Assembly: GCA_016713305.1 (NCBI GenBank)
Contig: JADJPK010000007.1
Coordinates: 128,513-192,512, forward strand
Length of the DNA stretch: 64,000 nt
DNA from: Betaproteobacteria bacterium
GTDB taxonomy: Bacteria > Pseudomonadota > Gammaproteobacteria > Burkholderiales > Ga0077523
Direction of reading: 5' to 3'
Below the pieces are notes generated by a model. It ran no database searches. It was not told the origin of the DNA and saw nothing but the letters and a program-made list of their open reading frames with translations. The position numbers and the translations under genes are program-made. Shown piece after piece: positions 3,155 to 39,189 of this stretch. Numbering within the stretch: position 1 is the stretch's first letter; each line of letters begins with the position of its first letter.

Positions 3155-3255
3155 GCAGCGCTTTGAGTGCGCCGCAATAATGTGCGACAGATCGCCGCAG
3201 AAGGGCGCGGTGGTCGCACACCACTTTTCGGAGTGTTCTGGGATAGGGAGCGGAC

Positions 3256-4678
3256 ATGCAACAACAGACGACCTACAACTACAAGGTGGTCCGACAGTTC
3301 GCCATCATGACGCTGGTTTGGGGCATCGTATGGATGCTCGTGGGCGTGGTGATCGCGGCGCAACTGTTGTGGCCGGATTTGACGCGGGATCCCCTGGCTT
3401 TCGTACGGCCGGCTGCGACCTCTGCACACGAACGCGGTGATCTTCGCGTTCGGCGGCAGCGCGCTGTTCGCGACATCGTATTACGCGGTCCAGCGGACCT
3501 GTCATACGCGGCTGTTCGCCGGACCGCTGGCAGGGTTCACGTTCTGGGGCTGGCAACTCATCATCGTGCTCGCCGCGCTGTCGCTGCCGATGGGCATCAC
3601 CACCGGCAAGGAATACGCCGAGCTCGAGTGGCCCATCGACCTGCTGATCGCCGTCGTCTGGGTCAGCTACGCGATCGTGTTCTTCGGCACGCTCGCCACG
3701 CGCAAGGTCAAGCACATCTACGTGGCCAACTGGTTCTTCGGCGGCTTCATTCTCACGGTGGCGTTGCTGCACATCGTGAACAGCGCCGAGATCCCGGTGT
3801 CGATGTTCAAGTCGTACTCGGCCTACGCCGGTGTGCAGGACGCAATGGTGCAGTGGTGGTACGGCCACAATGCCGTGGGTTTCTTCCTGACCGCCGGATT
3901 CCTTGGGATGATGTACTACTTCGTTCCCAAGCAGGCCGGCCGTCCGGTGTATTCGTACCGTCTCTCGGTCGTGCACTTCTGGGCGCTGATCTTCACCTAC
4001 ATGTGGGCAGGTCCCCACCACCTGCACTACACCGCGCTGCCGGACTGGGCGCAGTCGATTGGCATGGTGTTCTCGCTCATCCTGCTCGCGCCGTCCTGGG
4101 GCGGAATGATCAACGGCATCATGACCCTCTCGGGCGCATGGCACAAACTGCGCACGGATCCGATCCTGAAGTTCCTCATCACGTCCCTGTCCTTCTACGG
4201 CATGTCGACGTTCGAAGGTCCGATGATGTCCATCAAGACCGTGAACTCGCTCTCGCACTATACGGACTGGACGGTGGGCCACGTGCACTCGGGTGCTCTG
4301 GGCTGGGTCGCGATGATCTCCATCGGCAGCCTCTATTACATCATCCCCAGGCTCTTCGGCCGGGTCGAGATGTACAGCGTGCGGCTCATCACCCTTCACT
4401 TCTGGGTGGCCACCATCGGCGTCGTGCTGTACATCGCCGCCATGTGGATCGCCGGGGTGATGCAGGGACTGATGTGGCGTTCGGTCAACCCTGACGGCAC
4501 GCTGACCTACACGTTCGTCGAGAGCGTCAAGTCCACCTACCCGTTCTACGCCATCCGTCTTCTCGGCGGGGTGATGTACCTGAGCGGCATGCTGATCATG
4601 GCCTACAACGTCTGGAAGACCGTGGCAGGTGCCAAGGCCGTGGATGCGCCGATCCTGGCAGCGGCACCGGCGCACTGA
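3256..4678 (+). pseudogene. ccoN: cbb3-type cytochrome c oxidase subunit I (CcoN), frame broken near the N-terminus
   Basis: The N-terminus [29 protein letters not shown] lies in the frame of ORF 3256-4494. The rest ([23 protein letters not shown] ... HVHSGALGW, multi-TM haem-copper fold) lies in the frame of ORF 3437-4678. The switch is within 3378-3392. Confidence 0.9.
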
Positions 4679-4693
4679 GCACAGGAGAGACAA

Positions 4694-5308
4694 ATGAGCT
4701 TTTCACACGAAACCATCGAGAAGAACATCACCTGGCTCATCGTGCTGGTGGTGCTCACGGTCAGCGTGGGCGGCCTGGTCGAGATCGTGCCGCTGTTCTT
4801 CCAGAAATCCACGACCGAAGCCGTCAAGGGAGTGGAGCCGTACTCGCCTCTGCGCCTGACAGGGCGTGACGTCTACATCCGCGAAGGTTGCTACAACTGC
4901 CATTCGCAGATGGTGCGTCCGTTCCGCGCGGAGACGGAACGCTACGGTCATTACTCGGTTGCCGGCGAGTACGTCTACGACCATCCGTTCCAGTGGGGCA
5001 GCAAGCGCACCGGTCCGGATCTGCACAGGGTGGGCGGGCGTTACAGCGACGATTGGCACAGGCTTCATCTGAACAATCCGCGCGACGTGGTTCCCGAGTC
5101 CAACATGCCGGCGTATCCGTGGCTCGCTTCCGCGCCAGCCGATGCTTCCACGATCGAGGCGAAGATGAAGGCGCTGCGGATGGTTGGCGTGCCGTACACC
5201 GACGAGCAGATCGGCAAGGCTCGCGAGGAGCTTGCCGGGAAGACCGAGCAGGATGCGCTGGTCGCGTACCTGCAGGGTCTGGGTACCGCTCTCAAGAACG
5301 TGAGGTGA
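4694..5308 (+). CDS. ccoO: cbb3-type cytochrome c oxidase subunit II, monohaem (CcoO)
   Basis: N-terminal TM anchor, [11 protein letters not shown] haem c site and FixO-like sequence throughout. It starts 16 nt after ccoN. Confidence 0.95.
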
Positions 5309-5311
5309 TAC

Positions 5312-5497
5312 ATGGACATCTCCGTGGCAGACGTTCGTTCCTGGATGACCGTGGTTCAATTCGTGGTCTTCCTGGGCATCGTGTGGTGGGCGTTCGGCGC
5401 GGCCCGGAAGGGACGCTTCGAAGAGGCGGCGAAGCTCGCCCTGGAGGACGACGATCCTGTCGTCCAGACGGGCACGCGGCGCGGCGGACAGAAATAA
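5312..5497 (+). CDS. ccoQ: cbb3 oxidase small subunit CcoQ
   Basis: 61-aa single-TM protein sitting between ccoO and ccoP, which is the canonical position. Confidence 0.7.
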   Translation: MDISVADVRSWMTVVQFVVFLGIVWWAFGAARKGRFEEAAKLALEDDDPVVQTGTRRGGQK

Positions 5498-5509
5498 GAG
5501 GGAAGAGTC

Positions 5510-6430
5510 ATGAGTGATTTCACAAGCGATTTCTGGAGCCTCTACGTCGCTCTCATCACGGTGGTCAGCATCGTGGGATGCGGCATTTTCCTGAAGGCGC
5601 TGTCTTCCAAGCGCGTTCCCGGCTCGAAGGTCGAGACCATGGGGCACGTCTGGGACGGTGATCTGGAGGAATACAACAACCCGTTGCCGAAGTGGTGGAT
5701 GTGGCTCTTCTACATCACGCTCGTGTTCGGAGCGATCTACCTCGCGCTGTATCCGGGCCTGGGCAGCTCAAAGGGGGCCTACAACTGGTCATCCACCGGG
5801 CAGTACGACACCGAACAGGTCCGCGCGCAGGAGCGCTTCGGTCCCATCTTCGAGAAGTTCCAGAAGATGGAACTCGAGCAGGTGGCGGCGAGTCCGGAAG
5901 CCAAGGAAATCGGGCAACGGCTCTTTCTCAACTACTGCGCGCAGTGTCACGCATCCGACGGCCGCGGCAGCAAGGGCTTCCCCAACCTGACGGACAAGGA
6001 CTGGCTCTATGGCGGCGAACCGGCCACCATCAAGACATCCATCCTCGAGGGACGCGGCGGGATGATGCCTCCTCTGGGTCCGGTTCTGGGCGAGGAGGGA
6101 ACGAAGGACGTGGCGAACTACGTGATGTCGCTGTCGGGCCTCACGAACGACTCGGCGCGTGCCGGACGCGGCAAGGAGAAGTTCGAGCAGAACTGCGCGG
6201 CCTGTCACGGTCCTGAAGGAAAGGGCAACCCCGCTCTGGGCGCGCCGAACCTGGCGGACAGCACCTGGCTCTACGGCGGCAGCGAAGCGACGATCATCGA
6301 AACGGTCACCAAGGGTCGCAACGGACGGATGCCCGCGCACAAGGAGTTCCTCGGCGAGGCCAAAGTGCACGTCCTGGCCGCGTATATCTGGAGCCTGTCG
6401 AATTCCGGCGAGAAAGTCGCCAATCAGTAG
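5510..6430 (+). CDS. ccoP: cbb3-type cytochrome c oxidase subunit III, dihaem (CcoP)
   Basis: N-terminal TM helix plus two CxxCH sites (CAQCHASDG, CAACHGPEG). Confidence 0.9.
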   Translation: MSDFTSDFWSLYVALITVVSIVGCGIFLKALSSKRVPGSKVETMGHVWDGDLEEYNNPLPKWWMWLFYITLVFGAIYLALYPGLGSSKGAYNWSSTGQYDTEQVRAQERFGPIFEKFQKMELEQVAASPEAKEIGQRLFLNYCAQCHASDGRGSKGFPNLTDKDWLYGGEPATIKTSILEGRGGMMPPLGPVLGEEGTKDVANYVMSLSGLTNDSARAGRGKEKFEQNCAACHGPEGKGNPALGAPNLADSTWLYGGSEATIIETVTKGRNGRMPAHKEFLGEAKVHVLAAYIWSLSNSGEKVANQ

Positions 6431-6444
6431 GACTCTTGCGGTAG

Positions 6445-6478
6445 ACGGGTCGGTGGCGCCTCGGCACCGCTGACCCGT
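6445..6478 (+). terminator. Stem-loop after ccoP (no U-tract)
   Basis: ACGGGTC...GACCCGT outer stem plus GGTG/CACC inner stem, starting 15 nt after the ccoP stop. No T-run follows, so termination activity is uncertain. Confidence 0.3.
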
Positions 6479-6734
6479 GTCCATCGAGACACGCCGATCT
6501 GCCGGCCATCGCACCCTGGACGCGAACCGCAGACGAGCGCTGAAAGCATCAATGGCCGGACGGTTTCCGTCCAAGGCTTGGGGGGACGGCGCAGAGAGGC
6601 GGCTTTCTGCGTGACACGAATGTTCCGGGATGGGCGTCACACGGAGTGACGCGGATTCCGGTTCCGTGCGGACGCCACGACCCGGCCATCGCTGGAATCG
6701 CTCGCTGACCGCACTTTGGTACAGACGAGGTTCC

Positions 6735-8183
6735 ATGGACGCGCAGGTCAGGTCACAAGCGAAGGGCAAGCCGGCTGCCGGCGGCAAGGGCACCGACGAG
6801 GATCAGGCCCTATACGAGATCCGCAAGAAGATCTACCCCAGGGCGGTGACCGGGCATTTCGCGACGGCACGCTGGGCCCTGGTGTTCCTGACGCAATTCG
6901 TCTTCTACGGTCTGGCCTGGTTCGAATGGAACGGCCGGCAGGCCGTGCTGTTCGATCTCGCATCGCGCAAGTTCTACATCTTCGGCCTCGTCTTCTGGCC
7001 GCAGGACATCGTCTATCTCACCGTCCTGCTCATTCTCTCTGCGTACGCACTGTTTCTTTTCACGGCGGTGGCGGGCCGGCTGTGGTGCGGCTACGCCTGT
7101 CCCCAGACCGTCTATACCGAACTTTTTCTCTGGATAGAGCGGGTCGTCGAGGGAGACCGGTTGCAGCGCATGAAGCTCGACAAGTCCGAATTGTCGGGTC
7201 GCAAGTTCGGCAAGAAGGCCGTCAAGCATTCGCTGTGGATTCTTCTCGCCCTGTGGACCGGTTTCACGTTCGTCGGCTACTTCACGCCCATCCGGACGCT
7301 CGCCTCCGACGTGATGGCCTTCGGTGCCGGTCCCTGGGAAACGTTCTGGATGCTGTTCTACGGTTTCGCGACCTACGGCAATGCGGGCTGGATGCGGGAG
7401 CAGGTATGCAAGTACATGTGCCCTTATGCGCGATTCCAGGGGGTCATGTTCGATCCGGATACGCTGGTCATCACCTACGACAAGGAGCGCGGCGAACCCC
7501 GGGGAGCGCGTTCGAAGTCGGCAGACCCCTCGAAGCTGGGGCTGGGAGCCTGTGTGGACTGCGGCATCTGCGTGCAGGTGTGTCCGACGGGCATCGATAT
7601 CCGGAACGGGTTGCAGTACGAATGCATCGGCTGTGCCGCGTGCATCGACGGTTGCAACCAGGTCATGGACAAGATGAACTACCCTCGGGGGCTCATCCGT
7701 TACTCGACCGAACACGCCGTCAAGCAGCATCTGGACCGCAAGGCGATGATCCGGCAGATCTTCAGGTTCCGCGTGCTGCTGTACACCGGCATCCTGCTTG
7801 CCGTTGCCACGGCAGCGGTGGTGACGCTGGCGCATCGGGTGCCGGTGAAAGTCGACGTCATTCGAGACCGGGTGCCGATGGCCGCGGACAATGGAGACGG
7901 CAAGGTGGAGAACGTCTACCGGCTGCAACTGATGAATACGGACGAAACGCCACGCACCTTCAGGATCAGCGCGTCGGGCTTGCCCGAGCTTCAGCTGGAT
8001 GCGCGGGAGAATCCGGTCGAACTGCCGGGGGCCACCTCTCGCATGGTGCCTGTGAGGGTACGTGCCAAGCCCGACGCGGCCAGCCACGGATCTATGGGCA
8101 TCGATTTCCGGGTGGAAGCCACGAGCAAGGACAACCCGACACCGATCGTGATCGACGAGAAGGCGAAGTTCATCGTTCCCTGA
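6735..8183 (+). CDS. ccoG: cbb3 oxidase accessory ferredoxin-like membrane protein CcoG/FixG
   Basis: LYEIRKKIYPRAVTGHF start region, TM helices, and Cys clusters CKYMCPYARFQ and CVDCGICVQVCPTG..CIGCAACIDGC. The ATG at 6735 was preferred to the ORF start at 6630. Confidence 0.9.
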   Translation: MDAQVRSQAKGKPAAGGKGTDEDQALYEIRKKIYPRAVTGHFATARWALVFLTQFVFYGLAWFEWNGRQAVLFDLASRKFYIFGLVFWPQDIVYLTVLLILSAYALFLFTAVAGRLWCGYACPQTVYTELFLWIERVVEGDRLQRMKLDKSELSGRKFGKKAVKHSLWILLALWTGFTFVGYFTPIRTLASDVMAFGAGPWETFWMLFYGFATYGNAGWMREQVCKYMCPYARFQGVMFDPDTLVITYDKERGEPRGARSKSADPSKLGLGACVDCGICVQVCPTGIDIRNGLQYECIGCAACIDGCNQVMDKMNYPRGLIRYSTEHAVKQHLDRKAMIRQIFRFRVLLYTGILLAVATAAVVTLAHRVPVKVDVIRDRVPMAADNGDGKVENVYRLQLMNTDETPRTFRISASGLPELQLDARENPVELPGATSRMVPVRVRAKPDAASHGSMGIDFRVEATSKDNPTPIVIDEKAKFIVP

Positions 8184-8190
8184 AGGTGCA

Positions 8191-8736
8191 ATGGAAGAGG
8201 ATGACAAACCGATGATTGCAGACACAGCCGGACGGGCGGGCAGCGGGCTCCCCTGGTATCGGGAACCGTGGCCCTGGATCCTCATGGCGGGTCCGGTCGC
8301 AGCGGTGATCGGCGGTGCCATCACCGCCTACATCGCGGTCACGCATCAGGATGGTCTGGTGGCGGAGGACTACTACAAGCAGGGCCTCGCCATCAACCGG
8401 ACCGTCGCGAAGGGGCGCGCAGCCACGAAACTGGGGCTGACGGGGCGGTTGCAGGTCGGCGACGATGGGCGACGTCTGCGTGTGCTGCTCGAAGGGGCCT
8501 CCGGGACTCCCGCATCGCTCAAGCTCAAACTGGCCCACGCCACGGTCGCGGGCATGGATCAGCAGGTGGGTCTCTCCCTGGTGGACGGCGGCTGGTACGA
8601 GGGGGTTCTCGCCACCACAGTGACTCAAGGCAAATGGAAGGTGCTGCTGGAAGATTCCGAAGGTCGGTGGCGCATCACCGGGATCTGGCTATCCGGAGAA
8701 GAAAATACGGTTACACTGGCCGCCAAGGACGATTGA
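8191..8736 (+). CDS. ccoH: FixH/CcoH family assembly protein
   Basis: PWYREPWPWILMAGP..AEDYYKQGLAINR is a typical FixH N-terminus. The gene follows ccoG. Confidence 0.8.
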   Translation: MEEDDKPMIADTAGRAGSGLPWYREPWPWILMAGPVAAVIGGAITAYIAVTHQDGLVAEDYYKQGLAINRTVAKGRAATKLGLTGRLQVGDDGRRLRVLLEGASGTPASLKLKLAHATVAGMDQQVGLSLVDGGWYEGVLATTVTQGKWKVLLEDSEGRWRITGIWLSGEENTVTLAAKDD

Positions 8737-8751
8737 CGGGGAGGGATCGCC

Positions 8752-9060
8752 GTGTCGGCTCAGCGACTCATGCACGTGTTGTGGCCCGCTTTCATCGTGG
8801 CGGGCGCTGCCGAGGCCTTGTTCTTTTCGGTCTTCGACCCGTCCGAGCTCTCCATCTTCGGTGAGATGGCGGGTATGGCTCCCACCGCGGTGTATTCCGC
8901 TGGCTTCTTCTTCTTCTGGGCAGTGGCCACGGCTTCCAGCGTGTTGACCTGCTTCTTTCAGCGCACGGCGGCGGACATCAACAAGTGCCCCATCGAGGAT
9001 CCCACCGCCCGTCCGGTGGGCTGCCCCAAGCGCGACGATCCCAACGCCTGTTCCTCGTGA
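8752..9060 (+). CDS. Hypothetical small membrane protein
   Basis: GTG-start ORF of 102 aa with two or three hydrophobic segments, 15 nt after ccoH. I did not recognise a family. Confidence 0.4.
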   Translation: MSAQRLMHVLWPAFIVAGAAEALFFSVFDPSELSIFGEMAGMAPTAVYSAGFFFFWAVATASSVLTCFFQRTAADINKCPIEDPTARPVGCPKRDDPNACSS

Positions 9061-9366
9061 TTCTGCGGTTGTGACCGCGCCATTCGCGCGGGAGGTGCAG
9101 GTGCCCCTGCACTCGATGCGTATCACGAATTTCTCTCCCGGGTGAACTCAGGCCGCGATTCTCCCGGTCCATCGACGGATCGGGAGGCTCCCGGTCATGC
9201 CTCTCCCATACCGGAGTCCGATTTCGTGTCGGGCCCCCTTCCTGCCCATCTGTCCTGCCGGATCCCGGCTCGCGTTAGTGCGTGCCGTATGTGACCGAAG
9301 TCACCGAGCGCATGGCGCGAGGGACGCACACTTCATGGCGAATATCCTGGAGGGGTTGTACCTACC

Positions 9367-10410
9367 GTGACCACCGAGAATCGACACGCTGTCCTGCGCA
9401 TCGCGGGCGCTGCCCTGGTGTCTTGTGTTCTGGCCGGGCAGGCCCATGGCGAGAATCTGGCCACCGGGGCTGTCCAGTATCGCGAGGTGGATGTCACCTA
9501 CGCCGCCGAAGCCGTGGTGGAAGCGACGCGGCAATCCACGGTGTCCGCTCAGGTCACCGGCCGGATCGTCGAGCTGAAATACGACGTCGGTGACTACGTC
9601 CAGAAGGGACAGCTCCTCGTGCGCATCGACCAGACCGAAGCGCAGCAGGTCCTGGCCGGCAGCGAGGCGCAGGTCGCCCAGGCGCAGGCGGCTTTCGAGA
9701 ACGCGCGTGTCGAGCTGGACAGGACTCGCGATCTTGCCAAGCAGAAGTTCATCAGCCAGGCCGCTCTGGACAAGGCCGAGGCCGCATACCGGGTGGCCGA
9801 GGCTCAGCTGCGGACGGCAAAGGCAGGAGCGGGCCAGGCGGCCACCACCAAGGGATACACCACGGTCGTCGCGCCCTACAGCGGTGTCGTGTCGGCCCGC
9901 CACGTGGAGCTCGGCGAGATGGCAGCGCCTGGCAAGCCGCTCCTGACGGGGTTCGACCCAGGCGACCTGCGGGCTCTTGCCACCGTTCCCCAATACAAGG
10001 TCCCGGATATCAAGGGCAGTCCGCGGGTCGTGGTGGAAATTCCTTCGATCAGCCGGCAGGTCACGGGCCGTTCCTTCACCGTGCTGCCGGCGGCTGACGC
10101 CAATACGCATTCCACGAAGGTTCGCATCGATCTGCCTGCCGATCTGCGCGACGTCTATCCCGGTGTGTACGCCCGGGCGCATTTCACTGTGGGCCGGGGC
10201 CGCAAGCTCGTCATGCCCACCACGGCCATCGTCCGCCGCAGCGAGGTGACGGGGGCCTATGTCGTGGACGCCAGGGGAGGCGTCTCGCTTCGCCAGATCC
10301 GCGTCGGCGAGCCCGCAGGAGAGAACTACACCGAGGTGCTGTCCGGGCTCAAGCCGGGCGAGAACGTGGCGCTCGATCCCGTGAAAGCGGGCATCGCGCT
10401 CGGCAAGTGA
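9367..10410 (+). CDS. Efflux RND transporter periplasmic adaptor subunit (MFP/HlyD family)
   Basis: Signal or anchor sequence, lipoyl-like hairpin (GRIVELKYDVGDYVQKGQLLVRID), coiled coil (AQVAQAQAAFENARVELDRTRDLAKQ..) and a beta-barrel C-terminus. Confidence 0.8.
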   Translation: MTTENRHAVLRIAGAALVSCVLAGQAHGENLATGAVQYREVDVTYAAEAVVEATRQSTVSAQVTGRIVELKYDVGDYVQKGQLLVRIDQTEAQQVLAGSEAQVAQAQAAFENARVELDRTRDLAKQKFISQAALDKAEAAYRVAEAQLRTAKAGAGQAATTKGYTTVVAPYSGVVSARHVELGEMAAPGKPLLTGFDPGDLRALATVPQYKVPDIKGSPRVVVEIPSISRQVTGRSFTVLPAADANTHSTKVRIDLPADLRDVYPGVYARAHFTVGRGRKLVMPTTAIVRRSEVTGAYVVDARGGVSLRQIRVGEPAGENYTEVLSGLKPGENVALDPVKAGIALGK

Positions 10411-10444
10411 CCTATCCACTACAGACACAGACGGAGGACGCGCA

Positions 10445-11724
10445 ATGGCTCACATCGTGATCATCGGTGCCGGAATCGGCGGCATGCCCATGGCTTACGA
10501 GATGAAGGAACTCGCCCGTTCCGGCGACGTGGTCACGGTCGTGTCGAATGCCCCGACCTTCCATTTCGTCCCCTCGAATCCCTGGGTGGCGGTCAACTGG
10601 CGCAGCCGCGACGACATCGAGTTTCCGGCTGCCGAGTATCTCTCGAAGAAGGACATCCGGTTCACCGCGGCTGGTGCCAAGCGGGTTCATCCGGATCGCA
10701 ACCAGGTCGAACTGGGCGACGGCACCGTCCTCGACTATGACTTCCTGATCATTGCAACCGGACCGAAGCTCGCGTTCGACGAGGTCGAAGGCCTCGGCCC
10801 CTCAGGTCACACGCAGTCCATCTGTCACGTCGATCACGCCGTTGCCGCGGGCCGCAACTGGGAGACCTTCGTCAAGGATCCCGGTCCGGTCGTCGTGGGA
10901 GCGGTGCAGGGCGCGTCGTGCTACGGGCCCGCCTACGAGTTCGCCTTCATCATGGAGACCGATCTTCGGCGTCGAAAGATCCGCGACCGGGTTCCGATGA
11001 CCTACGTGACAGCGGAGCCGTACATCGGCCACCTGGGCCTGGGCGGAGTGGGGATTCGAAGACATTGCTCGAGTCGGCCATGCGCGAGCGGAACATCAAG
11101 TGGATCTGCAACGCGAAGACCACTCGCATCGAAGCGGGGAAGATGTTCGTCACCGAATACGACGACACCGGCAAGGAGAAGAAGCAGCACGAACTCCCGT
11201 TCAAGTACTCCATGATGCTGCCGGCGTTCAAGGGCGTGGATGCCGTGTTCGGCATCGAGGGGCTCACCAACCCGCGAGGGTTCATCCTCATCGACGAGCA
11301 TCAGCGCAACCCCAGGTTCAAGAACATCTATTCGGTCGGAGTCTGCGTCGCCATTCCTCCGGTCGAGGTGACGCCAGTGCCGACCGGTGCGCCCAAGACC
11401 GGCTACATGATCGAGTCCATGGTGACGGCCGTGGCCCACAACATCCGTGCCGTCATGGACGGGAAGGAGCCGGACGAGAAGGCGACGTGGAATGCCCTCT
11501 GCCTTGCGGATTTCGGCGACACGGGGGTGGCCTTCGTCGCGCTTCCCCAGATTCCTCCACGAAACGTGAACTGGTTCTCGGAAGGCAAATGGGTGCATCT
11601 GGCCAAGGTGGCATTCGAGAAGTACTTCATCCGCAAGATGAAGAAGGGGACTTCCGAGCCCGTATACGAGAAGCTCGTGCTGCACAGCCTGGGCATTCGC
11701 AAGCTCAAGAATCCGGAAGGGTGA
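10445..11724 (+). pseudogene. sqr: Sulfide:quinone oxidoreductase (type I SQR), frame broken
   Basis: MAHIVIIGAGIGGMP FAD fold with Cys contexts SICHVDH, GASCYGPAYE and VGVCVAIPP, and a C-terminal KYFIRKMKKG amphipathic region. I recall it as collinear with Acidithiobacillus-type SQR. ORF 10445-11215 continues in the frame of ORF 10918-11724. The -1 shift lies in a G-run at 11048-11054 (..GLGGVG | DSKTLLESAM..). Confidence 0.9.
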
Positions 11725-11737
11725 TCCAGGCCGATCG

Positions 11738-14700
11738 ATGTCGCACGAATCGAACAACATGGGTGTATCGGGTCGTATCGCCGGCTTCTTTCTCGAATCG
11801 AGGCTGACGCCGCTCATCGCCCTGGTCGCGTTCCTCCTGGGGCTCTTCGCCGTGCTCGTCACGCCGCGCGAAGAAGAGCCTCAGATCGACGTGACCATGG
11901 CGAACGTGCTGGTGCCATTTCCGGGCGCCTCTGCGCGAGACGTGGAAAGTCTGGTGGCGACGCCCGCCGAGCAGGTTCTCTCGCGCATCGCCGGGATCGA
12001 TCACGTCCATTCGGTTTCGCGTCCCGGCATGGCCGTGCTCACGGTCCAGTTCAAGGTGGGAGAGGATGCTACCAAGGCCCTCGTGCGTCTGTACGACACC
12101 CTGGAGTCGCACAAGGATTGGCTCTCGCCCAACCTGGGCGTCGGTCAGCCGATCGTGAAGCCGAAGGGTATCGATGACGTGCCCATCGTCTCGCTTACGC
12201 TCTGGACGGAAGACAGGGAGCGCGGCGCATTCGAACTCGAGCGGGTGGCCCACGCGATGGAGGTGGAGCTGAAGCGGGTGCCCGGCACGCGCGACGTCCA
12301 TACCATCGGCGGGCCGGGGCACGTGGTCCGCGTTCTCATCGAGGCGGAAAGACTCAACGCCTATCGCGTGACCGCGCAGGACGTCCGTGCAGCGCTGCAG
12401 CTTGCCAACGCCTCCTTGCCTGCCGGCGCACTCCTCAAGGACAACCGCGAAGTCCTGGTTCAGACCGGCACCTACCTGAGCAGTGCGGCAGAAGTGAAGC
12501 AACTCGTGATCGGGGTTCATCAGGGTCGGCCGGTCTTCATGACCGATGTCGCGCGCGTGGAAGACGGCCCCGATCTGCCCTCGAGCTACGTCTGGTATGG
12601 CAAGGGACCCGGCGTTGCCGAGGGCAAGAGTGGCGAACAGCCTGCCGTCACCATCGCCGTCACCAAGAAGCCGGGCCAGAACGCGGTCGACGTGGCTGAC
12701 AGCGTGATCCGCCGTGCCGAGGCACTGAAGGGGCAGGTCATTCCGGAAGGCGTGCAGATGACGGTCACGCGCAACTATGGCGAGACTGCCAACGACAAGG
12801 CGTTGAAGCTCATCCAGAAGCTGGCATTCGCCACCCTGTCCGTCGTGGCGCTCGTCTGGTTCACTCTGGGCCGCAGGGAAGCGGGTATCGTGGGTATCGC
12901 GGTGGCCCTGACACTCGCCGCCACGTTGTTCGCATCCTGGGCGTGGGGCTTCACGCTCAATCGCGTGTCGCTGTTCGCGCTGATCTTTTCGATCGGCATT
13001 CTGGTGGACGACGCAATCGTTGTCGTCGAGAACATTCACCGGCGCCTGCAGCTTGCTGCGCAGGCAGAACCGGTGGATTCCGCCGGCGCGGCAACCCGCG
13101 CGACGACGCGGCTGCTCGCGGTCATTCCGGCGGCTGTCGACGAGGTCGGCGGGCCCACCATTCTCGCCACGCTGACGGTCATTGCGGCGCTGCTGCCCAT
13201 GGCGTTCGTTTCCGGACTCATGGGGCCCTACATGAGCCCCATTCCGATCAACGCATCGATGGGCATGGCGATCTCGCTCGCTGTCGCATTCGTCATCACG
13301 CCATGGCTGGCACTCAAGCTCCTCGGGGGCAGCGTGCACTCTCACGGTGCTGCCGGACCGGGCAGACTCGATCGTCTGTTCCGCCGGATGGAGCCGCTGT
13401 TGCGCCGGGAATCGGGGCGCAGGAACCGACTGATTCTGCTGGCGGGGGTGCTGGCGGCGATTCTGCTCTCGGTCGGCCTGGCCGTGGTACAGCTGGTCGT
13501 GTTGAAGATGCTTCCGTTCGACAACAAGTCGGAGTTCCAGGTGGTGGTCGACATGCCGGCCGGCACGCCGGTGGAACGCACTGCGGCCGTGCTGAAGGAT
13601 CTCTCGGCAGAAGTCGCGACGATTCCCGAGGTGACGGACTACCAGGCCTACGCTGGCACGGCGAGCCCGATCAACTTCAACGGTCTCGTGCGGCAGTACT
13701 ACCTGCGCAGCGATCCCGAGCAGGGCGACATCCAGGTCAACCTGGTGGACAAGCACCGGCGGGATCGAAAGTCGCACGACATCGCGCAATCGGTGCGGCC
13801 GGCGCTGGAGAAGATCGCCGCGGCCCACGGGGCGGAACTCAAGGTGGTGGAGGTGCCTCCGGGGCCTCCCGTGATGGCGCCCATCGTCGCGGAGATCTAC
13901 GGGCCCGACTACGCCGGACAGATGGCAGTCGCGAAGCGCGTGCGCCAGGCGTTCGAGAAGACGGACAACATCGTGGCGATCGACGACAGCATCGACGACA
14001 ACGCGCCGAAACTCGTGGTCCGCATCGAGCAGAACAAGGCGGCGATCGCGGGTGTGGCGGCGCGCGACGTCGTGGAAACGATGCGAATGGGGCTCGCCGG
14101 AGAGTACGCGACGCCCGTACACAGCGGTGCCGCGAAATACGAGATCCCGGTCAGGATCACCCTGCCTCCCGAACGCCAGGACACGCTGGACGAACTCCTG
14201 AAGCTTGCGGTGCGTTCGCGCAGTGGAGCGCTGGTGCCCCTGTCCGAACTCGTGGAGGTGATCCCCGTCGAGCGGGAGCGCTCCATCCTTCACCGCGATC
14301 TTCTGCCCGTCGTCTACGTGATGGGGGACATGGGGGGCGGCCTCGACAGCCCTCTCTATGGCATGTTCGGGATACGCGGCCTCGTGGCCGGCCAGCCACT
14401 GGAGCAGGGCGGGACCTCGGGGAACACTTCATCTCGCAGCCGGAGAATCGCTACGCCGCGTACAGTCTCAAGTGGGATGGAGAGTGGCAGATCACCTATG
14501 AAACGTTCCGCGACATGGGCCTTGCGTATGGCGTGGGGCTCATCCTGATCTATCTGCTCGTCGTCGCCCAGTTCGGGTCGTATCTCGTACCGCTCGTCAT
14601 CATGGCCCCCATCCCGCTCACCATCATAGGGGTCATGCCCGGTCACGCCCTTCTGGGCGCGCAGTTCACCGCCACGTCCATGATCGGAATGATCGCGTTG

Positions 14701-14988
14701 GCGGGCATCATCGTCCGCAATTCGATCCTGCTGGTGGACTTTGTGAACCTTCAGGTGAAGGAGGGCGTCGCGTTGCAGGATGCGGTGATCCATGCGGCGG
14801 CCGCGCGGGCAAAGCCCATCGTCCTGACCGGTCTGGCAGCCATGCTGGGAGCGCTTTTCATTCTCGACGATCCGATCTTCAACGGGTTGGCGATCTCCTT
14901 GCTGTTCGGGATTGCCGTGTCGACGCTGCTCACGCTGGTGGTCATCCCAGTCCTCTACTACGCCGCCCTGTACCGCCGGGTTCCGTGA
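11738..14988 (+). pseudogene. Efflux RND transporter permease (AcrB/AcrD/AcrF superfamily), frame broken
   Basis: A protein of about 1080 aa and 12 TM helices is split between ORF 11738-14548 and the tail of ORF 12943-14988 (..EHFISQPENRYAAYSLKWDGEW..VIPVLYYAALYRR). The -1 shift is at about 14408-14416. Confidence 0.9.
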
Positions 14989-15077
14989 CCGCAGTCACAT
15001 TCAAGCGCCGGGCGAACGCCTAGTCTTGGGGTTATCGCGGCCCGTGTCCGCAGCATCCATGCAGGAGTGATTCGAAA

Positions 15078-15296
15078 ATGACCGTCAACCGCATCGTCCG
15101 GATCGTGGCCGGGTTCTTCGTGCTCGTTTCCCTCGGTCTGGGAGTGGAGGGAAGCCCTCTTTTCGTGAATGCCAACTGGCTGTGGTTCACCGCTTTCGTG
15201 GGAGCCAATCTCTTCCAGAGCGGTTTCACCCGGTTCTGCCCGCTCGACATGATTCTCAAGCGGCTGGGCGTGAAGGAAGTGGAGGCGCGCGCCTGA
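15078..15296 (+). CDS. DUF2892 (YgaP C-terminal-like) small membrane protein
   Basis: 72 aa containing [14 protein letters not shown]...[19 protein letters not shown], which is characteristic of DUF2892. Confidence 0.75.
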
Positions 15297-15383: not shown

Positions 15384-16160
15384 TCAGCAGGGACGTTGGC
15401 CCACCAGATGGCGTAGCCGCGGGATGTCGATGATGCGAACGTGTTTCTGCTGCACGCTGATCATTCCTTCGTCCTGGAACTTCGAGAAGACGCGGCTTAC
15501 CGTCTCCAGTTTGAGTCCCAGATAGCTCCCGATCTCCTCGCGCGTCATTCGCAGGTAGAACTCGGACGGCGAATATCCTCGCGCCACGAAGCGTTGCGAC
15601 AGGTTCACGAGGAATGCCGCAAGGCGCTCCTCGGCCCGCATGCTGCCCAGAAGCATCATCACGCTGTGATCGCGCACGATCTCCCGGCTCATCACCTTGT
15701 GGAAGTGGCTCTGCAGGGCAGGTACTTCACGTGACAGATCTTCCAGTCGATTGAACGGTATGACGCAGACTTCGCTGTCCTCAAGCGCCACCGCATCGCA
15801 GGTATGCCGGTCGGTGCTGATGCCGTCCATGCCGATGAGTTCGCCCCCCATGTAGAAGCCGGTCACCTGATCGCGGCCGTCTTCCGAGAGGATCGTGGTC
15901 TTGAAGAACCCCGACCGGACCGCGTAGAGAGCATCGAAGCCCTCGCCGGATCGATAGATGCTCTGCCCCTTCTTGGCAGTCCGGCGGACGTGAATGAGAT
16001 CGTCCAGCCTTTCCAGCTCCGCATCCGAGAGTCCGACCGGAAGACACAGTTCCTTCAATCCGCAGGTGGAGCACGCCGTGCGCAGGCGCTCCAGGCTCAG
16101 AGGGGGAATGGGGGCGGGACCGGTCATCGAGGGTTCCTCATCGGCCTCAGCATTGGACAA
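15384..16160 (-). CDS. fnr: Fnr/Anr family oxygen-responsive transcriptional regulator
   Basis: N-terminal Cys cluster CSTCGLKELC, cNMP-binding fold and a C-terminal HTH (REEIGSYLGLKLETVSRVFSKF). Confidence 0.85.
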   Translation of the reverse strand: MSNAEADEEPSMTGPAPIPPLSLERLRTACSTCGLKELCLPVGLSDAELERLDDLIHVRRTAKKGQSIYRSGEGFDALYAVRSGFFKTTILSEDGRDQVTGFYMGGELIGMDGISTDRHTCDAVALEDSEVCVIPFNRLEDLSREVPALQSHFHKVMSREIVRDHSVMMLLGSMRAEERLAAFLVNLSQRFVARGYSPSEFYLRMTREEIGSYLGLKLETVSRVFSKFQDEGMISVQQKHVRIIDIPRLRHLVGQRPC

Positions 16161-16171
16161 TCTTCTGCCAT

Positions 16172-16185
16172 TTGATCCAGGTCAA
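16172..16185. promoter_or_regulatory. FNR/Anr-type box TTGAT-ccag-GTCAA in the fnr/hemN divergent region
   Basis: Close match to the consensus. TATCTT at 16207-16212 is spaced for a class II promoter driving hemN. The box lies 12 nt upstream of the fnr start codon, so autoregulation is possible. Confidence 0.6.
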
Positions 16186-16249
16186 GCGGGTTGAAGGGTT
16201 GGCGAGTATCTTCCGTTAACATTCCCGCTCAGACTGCTCGCAGCCAGCG

Positions 16250-17637
16250 ATGATAACCCAAGGCCATTTGGTCATCGACCCCGACGTACTCCGGCGCTAC
16301 GGCCATGCAGGCCCCCGGTACACGTCGTATCCCACCGCGGACAGGTTCGTCGAAGCTTGACGAGCATACCTACCGTTCCTGGCTGCGCAAGCGCGGTCTC
16401 GGGGCCATGGCGCGCCCCCCTGTCCATGTACGTTCACCTGCCTTTCTGCGACACGGTCTGCTTCTACTGTGCCTGCAACAAGGTCGTGACACGGGATCAT
16501 TCGCGGGCAGGCAAGTACCTCCGCTACCTGGCGACCGAAGCACGGCTCGTGTCGGAATCCCTGGACGGCGACCGCCGGCTGTCGCAACTCCATTGGGGCG
16601 GAGGACGCCCACGTTCCTCCAGCCGGATGAGTTGAAGCAGTTGATGGCGATCATCACCTCCCATTTCAAGCTCGAACCGGATGGCGAGTATTCCATCGAG
16701 GTCGACCCTCGCAGCGCGGCGCCGGGCACCATGACCCTGCTCGCCGACCTGGGAATGAACCGGGTGAGCATCGGAGTGCAGGATTTCGACGAGACGGTTC
16801 AGAAGGCCGTGAACCGGATTCAGAGCGAAGAGCTGACACGGGCCGTCGTCGAGGAATCCCGGCGCGCGGGATTCCGGTCGGTCAATCTGGATCTCATCTA
16901 CGGTCTGCCCAAGCAGAACGTCATCGGCTTCAATCGCACGCTGGAGCGAGTGATCGACCTCGGGCCCGACCGCATCGCCCTCTACAGCTACGCCCATCTT
17001 CCGCACCTCTTCGCCGCAGCGGCGCATCCTCGACAAGGACCTGCCCACGCCGGAAGCCAAGCTCAACATGCTGACCCTGGCGATCCGGCGTCTGGAGAAT
17101 GCGGGGTATGTGTACATCGGCATGGACCACTTCGCCTTGCCGGACGACGAACTCGCCGTCGCTCAGCGGCAGGGGCGGCTGCATCGCAACTTCCAGGGCT
17201 ATTCGACCCATTCGGACTGCGACCTCGTGGCGCTGGGGGTCACGGCCATCGGCAGCATCGGCCCGACGTACACCCAGAATGTCCGGACTCTGGACGAGTA
17301 TTTCGATCGGCTGGACCGCGGCGTGCTGCCCGTCATGCGGGGCGTGGAACTGTCCGCGGACGATCTTGTGCGCAGGACAATCATCCAGTCGATCATGTGC
17401 CATGGGACGGTGTCGATCGAATCGATCCAGATCGCCTATCTCCTCGACTTCCGGCAGTACTTCGCCGAGGAGATCGCGGATCTGCAGTGCTTCATCGATG
17501 ACGGTCTGGTCGTCATCGACGACGAGTGGTTGTCCGTCACGCCGAAGGGCCGCCTCCTGGTCAGGGCGGTCTGCATGGTGTTCGACCGGTACCTGCGCAC
17601 CCAGCAGCGCCGGGCCAGCTACTCCAAGGTCATCTGA
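16250..17637 (+). pseudogene. hemN: Oxygen-independent coproporphyrinogen III oxidase (HemN), four frame breaks
   Basis: The segments GPRYTSYPTADRF, DEHTYRSWLRKRGLG, PLSMYVHLPFCDTVCFYCACN..HWGGG, TPTFLQPDELK..YAHLPHLF and LDKDLPTPEAKLNML..GMDHFALPDDELA..NFQGYST lie in frames 2, 0, 1, 0 and 1. The breaks are near 16352-16358, 16415-16420, 16598-16606 and 17010-17020. Confidence 0.9.
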
Positions 17638-18342: not shown

Positions 18343-18590
18343 CGGTCGCTTCCCCCGAAGTGCCCCGTTCAGATGGCGCCGCGTCTCGCGGACCTATGGA
18401 CGGGACGCTGCTAACGTATTAATATTCAAAGCTATCCCGACGCGGCTCCCCGTGACGGGAAATTCGCACATCCGTCATTGATCGAGGTGGCACGCCCGGA
18501 CGCTCCGGCGTGTCGAGGCGTTCTTCCGGTTTTCCCGGGAGACGCGGGCGGATGGAGGCTCAACTTCATCAGACCAGGAGTAGCACACTC

Positions 18591-19337
18591 ATGTCCGTCA
18601 CCATGCGGCAGATGCTCGAGGCCGGCGTTCATTTCGGCCACCAGACCCGTTTCTGGAATCCCAAGATGGCCCCCTTCATCTTCGGCCATCGCAACAAGAT
18701 CCACATCATCAATCTCGAGAAGACCCTGGTCATGTACCAGGACGCGATGAAGCACCTGCGGCAGCTGGCGGCGAACAAGGGCACGATGCTGTTCGTCGGC
18801 ACCAAGCGCCAGGCCCGCGAGATCGTGCGCGAGGAAGCGCTGCGCGCCGGATGCCCGTACGTCGATCATCGCTGGCTGGGTGGCATGCTCAGCAACTTCA
18901 AGACGGTCAAGCAATCCATCAAGCGTCTGCGCGACATGGAAGGCATGGTGCAGGACGGCTCCATGGAGAAGGTTTCCAAGAAAGAGGCGCTCATGTACCA
19001 GCGCGAACTCGCCAAGCTCGAGCGCAGCCTGGGTGGCATCAAGGACCTGAACGGGCTTCCCGATGCGCTCTTCGTGATCGACGTCGGCTACCACAAGATT
19101 GCCATCACCGAAGCCTCCAAGCTGGGTATTCCGGTCATCGCCGTGGTCGACACGAATCACTCTCCGGAAGGCGTCTCGTACGTCATCCCCGGGAACGACG
19201 ATTCCAGCCGTGCGATCCGGCTGTATGCCCGTGGGGCGGCCGATGCGATCCTCGAAGGGCGCAGCCAGATCGTGCGCGAGATCATCAACGACGAGTTCGT
19301 CGAGGTGGAAACGACGGAAGAGCAGGCGGCGCAGTAA
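18591..19337 (+). CDS. rpsB: 30S ribosomal protein S2
   Basis: [26 protein letters not shown], with AGGAG about 10 nt upstream of the ATG at 18591. Confidence 0.95.
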
Positions 19338-19426
19338 CGACCTGACGGCAGGCCGGCCTCGCATGAGACCGGCGGTTCCGGGACGAACGTGGCGTCCCGA
19401 CATCGATTCGGACATCAGGAGTGGAC

Positions 19427-20332
19427 ATGGCGGAAATCACCGCAAGCATGGTCAAGGAACTGCGCGAGAAGACCGACGCGCCCATGATGGAATGCAAGAA
19501 GGCGCTGACGGAAGCCGGCGGCGACATGGGGAAGGCGGAGGAGATCCTCCGCGTCAAGCTCGGCAACAAGGCGGCCAAGGCGTCCGCACGCGTTGCGGCG
19601 GAAGGCGTCGTGGTGACCTACCTGTCGCCCGACCAGAAGCTTGCCGCCATCGTCGAAGTGAACTGCGAAACCGATTTCGTGGCCAAGAACGATGATTTTC
19701 TTGCGCTTGCCCGTACTCTCGCGCAACTGGTGGCCACTGAGAATCCTGCGGATGTGGCGGCGCTGTCGGCTCTGCCGCTGTCCGGAAAGACCGTCGACGC
19801 TGTCCGCACCGAGCTGGTGGGGCGTATCGGCGAGAACATGAGCATTCGCCGTTTCGTCAGACTGGAAGCCAAGGGCAAGGTCGCTCAGTACATCCATGGC
19901 GGGTCGAAGATCGGCGTGCTGGTGGACGTGGCCGGTGGCGACGACGTGCTTGCGAAGGATCTCGCGATGCATATCGCGGCGGCGAAGCCGGTCGCGCTCG
20001 CCAAGGAACAGGTGTCGCAGGAACTCATCCAGAAGGAGCGGGACATCGCGACGGCGAAGGCGGCCGAATCGGGCAAGCCTGCCGAGATCGTCCAGAAGAT
20101 GGTCGAGGGCAGCGTGCAGAAGTACCTCAAGGAAGTGACGCTCCTGGGCCAGCCTTTCGTCAAGGACGACAAGCAGACGATCGAGCAGCTCCTGAAGTCG
20201 AAGGGCGCCACCGTGGCCGCGTTCACGCTCTACATCGTCGGCGAGGGTCTGGAAAAGAAGTCCAGCGACTTCGCGGCGGAGGTCGCAGCGCAGGCGGCGG
20301 CTGCGAAGAAGGACCAGGGCGCGACCGTATAG
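19427..20332 (+). CDS. tsf: Translation elongation factor Ts
   Basis: [27 protein letters not shown] and a full-length EF-Ts. Confidence 0.95.
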
Positions 20333-20342
20333 ATCCGCGCCC

Positions 20343-21059
20343 ATGGCCAAGCCAGTTTTCAGGAGGATTCTTCTCAAGCTGTCGGGTGAAGCCCTCATGG
20401 GCGACGACAGCTATGGCATCAACCGGCCGACCATCGAGAGAATTGTCTCGGAGATCGCCGAGATCGTGAATCTCGGCATCGAGACCGGCGTGGTCATCGG
20501 AGGAGGGAACATCTTTCGTGGCGTCGCGCCGGGCGCGGCGGGGATGGACCGTGCCACTGCCGACTACATGGGCATGCTCGCCACGGTGATGAATGCGCTG
20601 GCGTTGCAGGATGCCATGCGAAGGATCGGCATCGCGGGGCGCGTCCAGTCGGCGCTCAACATCGAGCAGGTCGCCGAACCGTACATCCGCGGCAAGGCGA
20701 TCCGCTATCTCGAGGAAGGCAAGGTCGTGATCTTTGCGGCCGGTACGGGCAACCCCTTCTTCACGACCGATACTGCGGCTGCGCTGCGGGGCATGGAGGT
20801 CGGTGCGGACATCGTGCTCAAGGCCACTAAAGTGGATGGTATTTATTCCGATGATCCGAAGACCAATCCCGATGCCATGCGCTATCAGCGCCTCACGTTC
20901 GACGAAGCCATCGTCAAGAATCTGAAGGTGATGGATGCGACGGCGCTCACGCTTTGCCGCGATCAGAAGCTTCCGATCTGCGTGTTCAGCATCTTCAAGC
21001 CCGGTGCGCTGAAGCGCGTCGTGATGGGAGAGGACGAAGGAACCCGGGTTCACATTTGA
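20343..21059 (+). CDS. pyrH: UMP kinase
   Basis: [28 protein letters not shown] motifs. Confidence 0.95.
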
Positions 21060-21113
21060 CCCGGCCGGCCCGACCGGACGCAGGCCGGGCGGGCGTGTGT
21101 AGGGAGACGGCAC

Positions 21114-21671
21114 ATGATTGCAGACGTCAAGAAGACCACCGAGCAACGCATGCAGAAATGCATCGAGACGCTCAAGACGGACCTGGGCAAGGTGCGGACG
21201 GGCCGGGCGCATACCGGACTGCTGGACCACGTCAAGGTCGATTACTACGGCACGCCCACGTCGATCAGCCAGGTGGCCAACGTGACGTTGATCGATGCCA
21301 GAACGATCGGCGTCGCGCCGTGGGAGAAGAAGATGCTCTCCGCCATCGAGAAGGCCATTCGCGATTCGGACCTGGGACTCAATCCGTCCTCCATGGGGGA
21401 TCTCGTCCGGGTTCCGATGCCAGCCCTCACGGAAGAGCGCCGGCGGGATCTCATCAAGGTGGTCAAGGGCGAGGCGGAGAATGCGAGGGTTGCCATCCGC
21501 AACGTTCGCCGGGATGCCAACACCCATCTCAAGGATCTCCTCAAGGAAAAGAAGGTCTCGGAGGACGACGAGCGCCGCGCCCAGGAAGACGTGCAGAAGC
21601 TCACCGACCGCTATGTGGCCGAAGTGGAAAAGGTGCTCGCCACGAAAGAATCCGAGCTCTTGGCGGTCTGA
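21114..21671 (+). CDS. frr: Ribosome recycling factor
   Basis: 185-aa full-length Frr (..[21 protein letters not shown]..). Confidence 0.95.
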
Positions 21672-21672
21672 G

Positions 21673-22473
21673 TTGAGCCGCTTCGCAAGCTCGACCCTCG
21701 AGATTCCCGACGCCGCACGCGTGCCGCGGCACGTTGCCATCATCATGGATGGCAACGGGCGCTGGGCGAAGAAGCGATTGCTGCCGCGCGTTGCGGGCCA
21801 CAAGAGGGGGGTCGACGCGGTGCGAGAAACCGTGCGGCTTTCCGCCGAGTACGGAATTTCCTACCTCACGCTGTTCGCCTTCTCCAGTGAGAACTGGCGC
21901 AGACCCCCGGACGAGGTCTCCTTCCTCATGCAGTTGTTCGTGCGCGTGCTCGAGCAGGAAGTCTCGCGTTTGCATGGAAACAACATCCGTCTGAAGATCG
22001 TGGGCGACCGTTCGGCGCTCGATGCCGGGCTGGTGAGGCTCATACAGGAGAGCGAAGCCCTCACGGCCGCCAACACGGGGCTCACCCTGACCGTCGCGGC
22101 CAACTATGGCGGGCGCTGGGACATCATGCAGGCCGTGAACCGGATGGTGCGCGAGCATCCCGGCAAGTCCGGCAACTACTCCGAGACCGATCTCGCCCCC
22201 TATCTGGCGATGAACTACGCTCCCGAGCCGGACCTCTTCATCCGCACGGGAGGCGAGCAGCGCATCAGCAACTTCCTGCTCTGGCAACTCGCCTATACGG
22301 AGTTCCATTTCACGGAGACGCTCTGGCCGGACTTCGATGCGCACGCCTATCTGACGGCCATTCACTCCTATCGAAAGCGCGAACGCCGCTTCGGCCGCAC
22401 CAGCGAGCAGCTCACCGCCCCCGTCTCCGAAATGCCGGAAGACCGGCTGGCGGCGCCGGTCCTGAGGGGCTAG
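21673..22473 (+). CDS. uppS: Di-trans,poly-cis-undecaprenyl-diphosphate synthase
   Basis: [39 protein letters not shown]. The start was taken as TTG 21673, and the 5' end is uncertain. Confidence 0.9.
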
Positions 22474-22486
22474 ACGGCGTCGGCTC

Positions 22487-24487: not shown

Positions 24488-24609
24488 TCGGACCTTCCCT
24501 GGGATGAATCGTTGACGACTGTTTCTGTGAGCATGATGTCGAAGGTGGTGCTCCATATCCGGACAATGTGGCGCGTGCCATCGGGCGAGCGCGGCGAGGA
24601 GGCAATGGC

Positions 24610-25977: not shown

Positions 25978-25980
25978 CGG

Positions 25981-28248: not shown

Positions 28249-28288
28249 GCGACGGTGCGGCGAGCCGCATGACATCATGGACGATCAC

Positions 28289-28840: not shown

Positions 28841-28897
28841 TGTCTGGCGGCAGTACGGTCCCGGTCTGCGAGCATCCATCCCGTTGAGGGTCCGAGG

Positions 28898-29974: not shown

Positions 29975-29982
29975 CCCACGCC

Positions 29983-31202: not shown

Positions 31203-31238
31203 GCGGAAGCGGAAGCGGAACGGGAGAGCGGGGGACCT

Positions 31239-39185: not shown

Positions 39186-39189
39186 CCGG

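Follow-up and report, generated by a model that had tools for sequence, protein, structure and literature searches.

A type I sulfide:quinone oxidoreductase gene within a conserved MFP-RND-DUF2892 efflux module of betaproteobacteria: a probable sulfide-response operon

Why should the gene of a sulfide:quinone oxidoreductase (SQR) lie between the two genes of an efflux pump? The question is raised by a 64-kb stretch of betaproteobacterial DNA (GenBank assembly GCA_016713305.1, contig JADJPK010000007.1; this whole stretch is referred to below as the window), on the plus strand of which four genes follow one another. They encode a membrane fusion protein (MFP), the periplasmic adaptor of a resistance-nodulation-division (RND) pump (positions 9367-10410; 347 amino acids with an N-terminal signal peptide), a type I SQR (10445-11724), an RND inner-membrane permease (11738-14988) and a DUF2892/YgaP-like two-helix membrane protein (15078-15296; 72 amino acids). 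The intergenic distances are 34 nt (MFP/sqr), 13 nt (sqr/RND) and 89 nt (RND/DUF2892), the second widening to 34 nt if translation of the RND permease starts at the alternative ATG at 11759, and a ribosome-binding site, GGAGGA, is found 5 nt ahead of the sqr ATG. No terminator-like site was detected in any of the three gaps, and no sigma-70-like site between the genes of the cassette; the five terminator-like matches obtained all fall within genes and are no more numerous than expected by chance. A preliminary description of this DNA had reported the same gene order and the same gaps, had suggested a single transcription unit, and had proposed that the pump could export or relocate the sulfur product of SQR.

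We consider it very probable that the four genes form an operon responding to sulfide or reactive sulfur, and that this operon is intact in the organism. Its conservation was surveyed by comparing the SQR protein, once repaired as described below, with one genome per species and inspecting the best 80 loci (76-90% identity). The order MFP-SQR-RND was present in 34 of these 80 species genomes, usually followed by DUF2892, with median gaps of 41 nt (MFP/sqr), 10 nt (sqr/RND) and 26 nt (RND/DUF2892); one more locus was broken by a contig end, five had sqr 1.5-3 kb upstream of MFP-RND-DUF2892, and about 40 had sqr with no pump nearby. The hosts are Burkholderiales, Rhodocyclaceae, Gallionella, Nitrosomonadales and other betaproteobacteria, and among them the cultured Sulfuritalea hydrogenivorans sk43H carries MFP-SQR-RND-DUF2892 at about 2.986-3.003 Mb of its complete genome, AP012547.1. 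Only the poor base-level quality of the window's assembly speaks for a misassembly or a chance adjacency, and that explanation is vanishingly improbable: the order recurs in 34 independent species genomes, in several metagenome contigs and in one complete isolate genome, and its recurrence with such short gaps excludes both. The preliminary description had named an arrangement unique to this assembly as the outcome that would undo its proposal, and the survey of related genomes that it suggested rules this out.

The arrangement was also said to be unfamiliar among characterized sqr loci, whereas a matching operon had already been published. In the work of Mehta-Kolte et al. (2017, mBio; PMC5358917) on Azospira suillum PS, genes Dsui_3440-3443 are annotated as a hypothetical protein, a cation/multidrug efflux pump, an SQR and an RND MFP subunit, the SQR gene also bearing the annotation of an NADH dehydrogenase FAD subunit. 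The same four genes thus stand in the same order, with the same annotations and in a betaproteobacterial host, the window showing the other-strand reading of the Azospira operon. Upon exposure to H2S, the log2 RNA-seq values of Dsui_3440-3443 rose from about 1-4 to 8.6-10.6, and Bar-seq under sulfide flagged these genes as the single operon (PMC5358917). The likeness rests on published gene order and annotations, not on sequence comparison, and the Azospira proteins were neither among our best 80 genome loci nor among the best 120 RND matches to a Rhodocyclaceae RND query. The window cassette nonetheless belongs to an operon type that is already known as sulfide-induced in Azospira.

What then is the conserved unit? 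The RND protein was compared with metagenome contigs, yielding 80 loci at 57-71% identity. Nearly all of them had MFP-RND, mostly followed by DUF2892, and sqr was located between MFP and RND in three of the 80, directly after RND in six and a few genes off in two; six loci had distant SQR-like flavoproteins only, and most had no sqr. The conserved core is therefore MFP-RND-DUF2892, most copies of which are without sqr, and its most constant partner is DUF2892, part of the module in 71 of the 98 loci (all those with room to judge). A pump "genetically locked" to SQR, as first proposed, does not survive the finding of sqr between MFP and RND in only 3/80 loci of this survey, nor that of about half of the close SQR orthologues being pumpless. 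In neighbor-joining trees of the RND and SQR proteins, computed without bootstrap, the MFP-SQR-RND loci fall within one RND subclade, interleaved with MFP-RND loci, and the RND-SQR loci within other RND subclades and a separate SQR lineage. From these separate lineages and subclades it follows that sqr entered the module repeatedly, and not always at the same place. Such repeated recruitment is stronger evidence of a functional link than the conserved order alone.

Genes recurring beside the module in related loci encode thioredoxin-2, rhodanese, DUF302, CMD/AhpD-like and OsmC proteins, together with a CsoR-like repressor, a YeeE-like Sulf_transp protein and a second DUF2892 protein. ArsR regulators adjoining the module form a cluster of 30, of which 18 have a cysteine pair like that of SqrR/BigR and about 11 the motif LCDLVC; regulators of the two-cysteine ArsR type have been reported elsewhere as neighbors of RND pumps (PMC12423496). 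In the SqrR regulon of Rhodobacter capsulatus, in BigR operons and in the FisR-controlled sqr-pdo genes of Cupriavidus, sqr and other genes of sulfur handling are likewise placed under a reactive-sulfur sensor, and these systems are matched here by the related modules with a two-cysteine ArsR and by stand-alone SQR orthologues, which are often encoded beside a sigma-54 regulator. The window cassette departs from these systems in that no ArsR, FisR, persulfide dioxygenase or rhodanese gene stands beside it and in that its candidate operator is of the CRP type. With the order found in 34/80 genomes, the short gaps, the reactive-sulfur neighbors and the induction in Azospira, the proposal that the four genes are one conserved unit tied to sulfide stands. 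To the published operon the present analysis adds the MFP-RND-DUF2892 core, the repeated recruitment of sqr, the reactive-sulfur setting, and a CRP-type operator with a Crp-family regulator as candidate.

The candidate operator is a palindrome of the TGTGA-N6-TCACA type, TGTGACCGAAGTCACC (9290-9305; one mismatch), lying 61 nt upstream of the MFP start (77 nt from the start of the site to the GTG at 9367). A second copy, CGTGACCGCAGTCACA (14984-14999), coincides in part with the RND stop codon, 78 nt ahead of the start of DUF2892 (94 nt from the start of the site to the ATG at 15078). Sites of this type occur nowhere else in the whole 64 kb. The palindrome upstream of MFP is likewise conserved in related loci, and the site at the position of the RND stop was found again in L001, L005, L016, L024, L035, L041 and L064 (such numbers designate the related loci and contigs that were compared). 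Allowing at most one mismatch, 14 of 71 related loci have the site ahead of the module, where about 0.8 would be expected by chance; all four loci that encode a divergent Crp-family regulator have it, and the 20 ArsR-linked loci all lack it. The Crp-family regulators concerned make up a subfamily in which three cysteines are conserved and the recognition helix, GSVREIVSR, resembles that of CRP. The palindrome marks the module in loci without an ArsR regulator, its conserved form being TGTGAY-N4-RTCACA (L039, L070, L092 and L093, as well as L006, L051 and L064).

This distribution suggests two alternative control schemes for the module, one of the ArsR type and one of the Crp type. In the window, neither an ArsR nor this Crp-family regulator was matched by tblastn, and the Crp-family protein of the related loci may be an undescribed member of the family that responds to sulfide or persulfide. 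Control of the cassette by FNR was considered as well and rejected, FNR boxes being present upstream of ccoN (3141) and hemN (16172) and none upstream of MFP. The fnr gene itself lies downstream of the cassette and convergent with it (15384-16160, minus strand; NCBIfam NF008365, 256 bits against a cutoff of 228); the recognition helix of its product is of the FNR type (ETVSR) and not of the CRP type, so that binding to TGTGA palindromes is unlikely. As a separate observation, pumpless SQR orthologues were often directly downstream of a gene for a sigma-54-dependent regulator whose likeness to FisR was judged by eye (L008, L014, L033, L034, L038, L040, L044, L051, L054 and L079). One SQR subfamily thus appears to be under at least three regulatory schemes.

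Whether the cassette is functional in this organism has to be asked, since neither the span of sqr (1280 nt) nor that of RND (3251 nt) is divisible by 3, and in the open reading frame (ORF) listing each gene is spread over two frames. The preliminary description was right about the order, the ends and the families of the genes and missed these frameshifts, by which sqr and RND are each not one ORF. The sqr frame breaks at a run of G at 11050-11053, and the addition of one G there yields an SQR of 426 amino acids; one G added at 14411-14413, a G-run that probably lacks one base, yields an RND permease of 1083 amino acids. Both repaired junctions agree with the homologues, the RND junction reading PLEQGGDLGEHFI. 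In contig L161, which is 94% identical to the window in DNA, the sqr run reads GGGGG where the window has GGGG, and the SQR encoded there (P0001) is 98% identical to that of the window. With 98% identity in protein against 94% in DNA, the differences are mostly silent, as expected of a gene under purifying selection. On L161 (WBZM01023087.1), an extra ORF of 155 amino acids is found between sqr and RND (1422-1889), encoding a signal peptide and Arg/Glu-rich repeats (RQERVERQER...); it has no counterpart in the window. Other long sqr-RND spacers are those of L011 (413 nt) and L049 (277 nt).

Alignment of the proteins of the four closest genomes (L001, L005, L016 and L024) to the window revealed further frame switches in the gene at 1814-2643, in ccoN (around 3385) and, three or four times, in hemN (16250-17634), all of which, together with those of sqr and RND, fall within about 17 kb; short G or C runs lie at or beside several of them. 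The dxr gene (23300-24487) is apparently truncated, with Pfam covering the C-terminal domains only (ORF 23930-24487), and the formate dehydrogenase subunit genes (42063-43332) are also broken by frame switches. Because so many genes of the window are shifted, several of them at or beside short G/C runs, because L161 retains the missing G and because sqr is under purifying selection, the frameshifts of sqr and RND are most likely indel errors of the assembly. Genuine frameshifts would make both genes pseudogenes and the cassette a decaying remnant in this organism, as the two broken frames of the given sequence would have it. We regard this as very unlikely in view of the switches in ccoN, hemN and the gene at 1814-2643 and the truncated look of dxr, of the G/C runs, of the G5 run kept by the sibling contig and of the selection that still seems to act on SQR. 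The assembly being apparently indel-prone throughout, any "pseudogene" of the window needs read-level confirmation.

The repaired SQR begins with MAHIVIIGAGIGG, which holds the FAD-binding Rossmann motif, and matches Pfam Pyr_redox_2. Residues 2-423 align with residues 5-429 of the Acidithiobacillus ferrooxidans enzyme (3sz0; E=2e-166), and the match to the type I SQR of Aquifex aeolicus (3hyv) is also full-length (1.4e-109). The motifs QSICHVDH, GASCYGPAYE and NALCLADFG align with the cysteine motifs of 3sz0, so that all three cysteines are in place; we take the catalytic cysteines of the A. ferrooxidans enzyme to be Cys128, Cys160 and Cys356. The window SQR shares with these two enzymes both the catalytic cysteines and the C-terminal region that binds the membrane; its gene, unlike theirs, sits within a pump operon.

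The MFP has the signature of a pump adaptor (TIGR01730, 197 bits against a cutoff of 94.9), the barrel-sandwich and lipoyl domains as seen by Pfam HlyD_D23 and HlyD_3, and a coiled-coil stretch judged by eye. Its closest solved structures are TriAB (6vej_P, 1.9e-49) and MexJ (7.9e-25), and matches below threshold extend to CzcB, CusB and ZneB (TIGR00999, 137 of 319 bits; ZneB, 1.2e-16). A lipoprotein nature, to which an LVSC motif in the window protein might point, was rejected, homologues having Sec-type signal peptides that are mostly ordinary and without a conserved cysteine. The RND permease has the full-length architecture of 12 transmembrane helices and two large periplasmic loops, with its match to Pfam ACR_tran (PF00873) covering positions 3-1018 of the 1021 (E=4e-147, 492 bits). 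It passes none of the cutoffs of the NCBIfam multidrug models (RND_permease_2, 460 of 1250 bits; RND_permease_1, 362 of 1250; TIGR00915, 290 of 940), nor that of the CusA/CzcA model TIGR00914 (262 bits, cutoff 701). The protein belongs to a distinct clade that lies under all curated subfamily cutoffs and is nearer to the multidrug, or hydrophobe/amphiphile efflux (HAE), models than to those of CusA/CzcA. In the PDB, its best match is 8gjj (1.9e-64) and its top matches are multidrug-type, TriC (6.4e-58) and MexK (1.2e-50) included; the 60 best comprise no chain of CusA or ZneA. The motif in transmembrane segment 4, VDDAIVVVEN, is one that we take to be of the HAE type and not of the heavy-metal efflux (HME) type. 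Across 100 members of this tightly conserved clade, in which 331 residues are at least 97% conserved, D424/D425, R994 and R1024 are each conserved in at least 97%; presumably they correspond to D407/D408, K940 and R971 of AcrB, in which case the charged residues of the proton relay in transmembrane segments 4, 10 and 11 are in place.

No outer-membrane factor (OMF) is encoded in the operon, and tblastn with two OMFs from related loci gave no match in the 64-kb window. The preliminary description, which had noted this absence, is correct for the window, whereas 18 related loci have an OEP-family gene beside the module. The operons of TriABC and MexJK lack an OMF gene as well and use OpmH or OprM encoded elsewhere; since these pumps borrow a distant OMF, the missing gene is no evidence for a two-part pump here. 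The closest solved MFPs are those of the Pseudomonas aeruginosa systems TriABC-OpmH and MexJK-OprM/OpmH (PDB 6vej, 20yy), which also supply some of the closest solved RND subunits. The similarity is distant, however: the cassette has a single MFP and not a TriA/TriB pair, and TriABC and MexJK are accompanied neither by sqr or DUF2892 nor by sulfur-related regulators.

The fourth gene product scored 55.1 bits with Pfam PF11127 (gathering score 25.3) and matched weakly the transmembrane domain of YgaP (2mpn). In Escherichia coli YgaP, a domain of this two-helix membrane family is joined to a rhodanese, and the ArsR-type YgaV encoded beside it belongs to the same two-cysteine ArsR group as the regulators linked to the module. 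No N-terminal rhodanese was found in the window protein, the 72 residues of which are the transmembrane domain alone; in contrast to YgaP, it stands by itself and has a near-invariant cysteine after helix 2 (FCP), which 90% or more of 44 homologues share.

How sulfide oxidizers dispose of the reactive and poorly soluble sulfur made by SQR is unsettled, as is the way in which extracellular sulfur crosses the outer membrane. The module is widespread, has repeatedly been joined to sqr, is found near regulators of the persulfide type and is strongly sulfide-induced in Azospira, and is therefore a concrete candidate for such disposal. From the gene identities, conservation, neighborhood and candidate operators established here, we infer as follows what the pump transports, on which side of the membrane SQR acts, what DUF2892 does and which regulator is in control. 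Sulfide would induce the unit, in this organism probably through a Crp-family regulator acting on the two TGTGA-N6-TCACA sites, and in other lineages through two-cysteine ArsR repressors. SQR would oxidize sulfide at the membrane, pass the electrons to quinone and release sulfane sulfur as polysulfide or S8. The RND permease and its adaptor would dock to an outer-membrane channel encoded elsewhere and clear a sulfide-derived product from the membrane or periplasm, the likeliest substrates being polysulfide, S8 or organic persulfides, with DUF2892 as a small accessory membrane subunit.

As a whole, this reading, in which a sulfide-response operon carries a type I sqr in an MFP-RND-DUF2892 module devoted to the efflux of sulfur products, is the best explanation that we can offer, and we judge it about equally likely to hold or to fail. 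Its parts differ in strength. That the pump might export polysulfide or S8 is plausible; that, working with an OMF encoded elsewhere, it removes sulfane sulfur, be it the product of SQR or of other origin under sulfide stress, is a possibility against which we lean slightly. More doubtful, and offered tentatively, is the stricter version in which MFP-RND-DUF2892 would be a dedicated exporter of zero-valent sulfur (polysulfide/S8), governed by reactive-sulfur sensors that include a new one of the Crp family, binding TGTGA-N6-TCACA, and with DUF2892 as a subunit for sulfur sensing or gating. Were it true, the module would supply the missing step by which betaproteobacteria that use SQR clear sulfur from the membrane or periplasm and take it through the outer membrane.

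Several observations weigh against the export of SQR sulfur by the pump. Deletion of sqr or of the whole operon left the rate of perchlorate-dependent sulfide oxidation in Azospira unchanged, in an experiment that read out oxidation rate and not tolerance or the fate of sulfur (PMC5358917). The literature searched contained no paper on the substrate of this pump and no transport data for any of its members; the RND pumps mentioned in papers on Nitrotoga and on Allochromatium grown on pyrite are unrelated. The window SQR has no signal peptide, and the side of the membrane on which it works is not readable from its sequence. By the positive-inside rule, the conserved cysteine of DUF2892 probably faces the cytoplasm, which fits ill with a simple handover in the periplasm. 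The RND protein of the window contains no cysteine, so that a covalent relay of persulfide through the pump is ruled out. Finally, most members of the RND clade are without sqr nearby and, of the close SQR orthologues, about half are pumpless; SQR products cannot then be the sole purpose of the pump, nor does SQR need the pump.

Two other substrates have to be weighed against sulfane sulfur. The pump might export chalcophilic metals or metal-sulfide complexes, SQR and pump being separate arms of one sulfide-stress response. Export of metal sulfides is what the Azospira authors themselves suggested for sulfide-induced RND pumps, and in their strain the FixG paralogue Dsui_0928 and an adjoining Zn-hydrolase were also strongly induced by H2S (PMC5358917). 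In the lineage of the window, the cassette adjoins ccoG/fixH, which handle copper for the cbb3 oxidase, and the weak matches of the MFP to CzcB, CusB and ZneB point the same way; the MFP-plus-RND architecture is shared with CusCBA and CzcCBA. We nevertheless think metal export unlikely. The adjacency to cco genes is confined to the closest relatives; unlike CusCBA and CzcCBA, the cassette has no metal chaperone or metal sensor, and the neighbors of the module are thiol and persulfide proteins and regulators of the reactive-sulfur type. The permease itself scores higher with multidrug models (460 bits) than with CusA/CzcA (262 bits), although both scores are under the cutoff, it has no CusA or ZneA among its 60 best PDB matches, and its segment 4 motif is, by what we take to distinguish these families, HAE-like.

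Alternatively, the module might be a general pump for hydrophobic compounds, such as organic thiols, disulfides, quinone-sulfide adducts or solvents, that is merely co-regulated with sulfur stress and into which sqr was inserted by neutral rearrangement in one lineage. TriABC and MexJK, drug and triclosan pumps, are its closest solved relatives, the greater part of the RND clade is without sqr, and the MFP-SQR-RND loci all lie within one RND subclade. Against this reading stand at least two recruitments of sqr, which drew on distinct SQR lineages and led to different positions, and the regulators found beside related modules are of the persulfide-sensing type. DUF2892, the module's partner in 71 of 98 loci, moreover belongs to a family with a sulfide-induced member in Azospira, Dsui_0042 (PMC5358917). 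We hold this explanation to be improbable, to about the same degree as metal export. Should metals or organic toxicants prove to be the substrate, the module, now annotated "multidrug efflux pump AcrB", would still be an efflux system of sulfide stress.

In the window, ccoNO(Q)P-ccoG-fixH (3247-8736) and fnr-hemN (15384-17634) flank the inserted cassette, the fnr-hemN gap holding the FNR box at 16172. Immediately upstream on the plus strand (6630-9060) lie ccoG/fixG (6630-8183), fixH (8191-8736), both assigned by Pfam, and the gene of a 102-amino-acid membrane protein (8752-9060); ccoI and ccoS do not follow fixH. The 8752-9060 protein, for which Pfam and NCBIfam gave no match, is predicted to form two membrane helices, carries a tail rich in Cys (CP...GCPKR...C), and is kept after fixH in the closest relatives only. 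The ccoG/fixH neighborhood itself is found only in the closest relatives, L001, L003, L005, L011, L016 and L024; in L075 and L149, fixG is likewise near the module. A foreign origin of the cassette was rejected, its GC content (0.63-0.65) being that of the window, and scans of the window for tRNAs and Rfam families gave no matches. The rest of the window (18510-32438 and 38367-43841) consists of ordinary chromosomal genes, namely rpsB-tsf-pyrH-frr, cdsA, dxr, rseP, bamA, skp, lpxD and lpxB, and then a CopD-like gene, mobB, fdhD and an NAD-linked formate dehydrogenase. In S. hydrogenivorans (L163, AP012547.1; 2338-4086), the cassette is divergent from a gene of the cytochrome cd1 type (NirS-like) and is followed by CHASE/response-regulator signaling genes.

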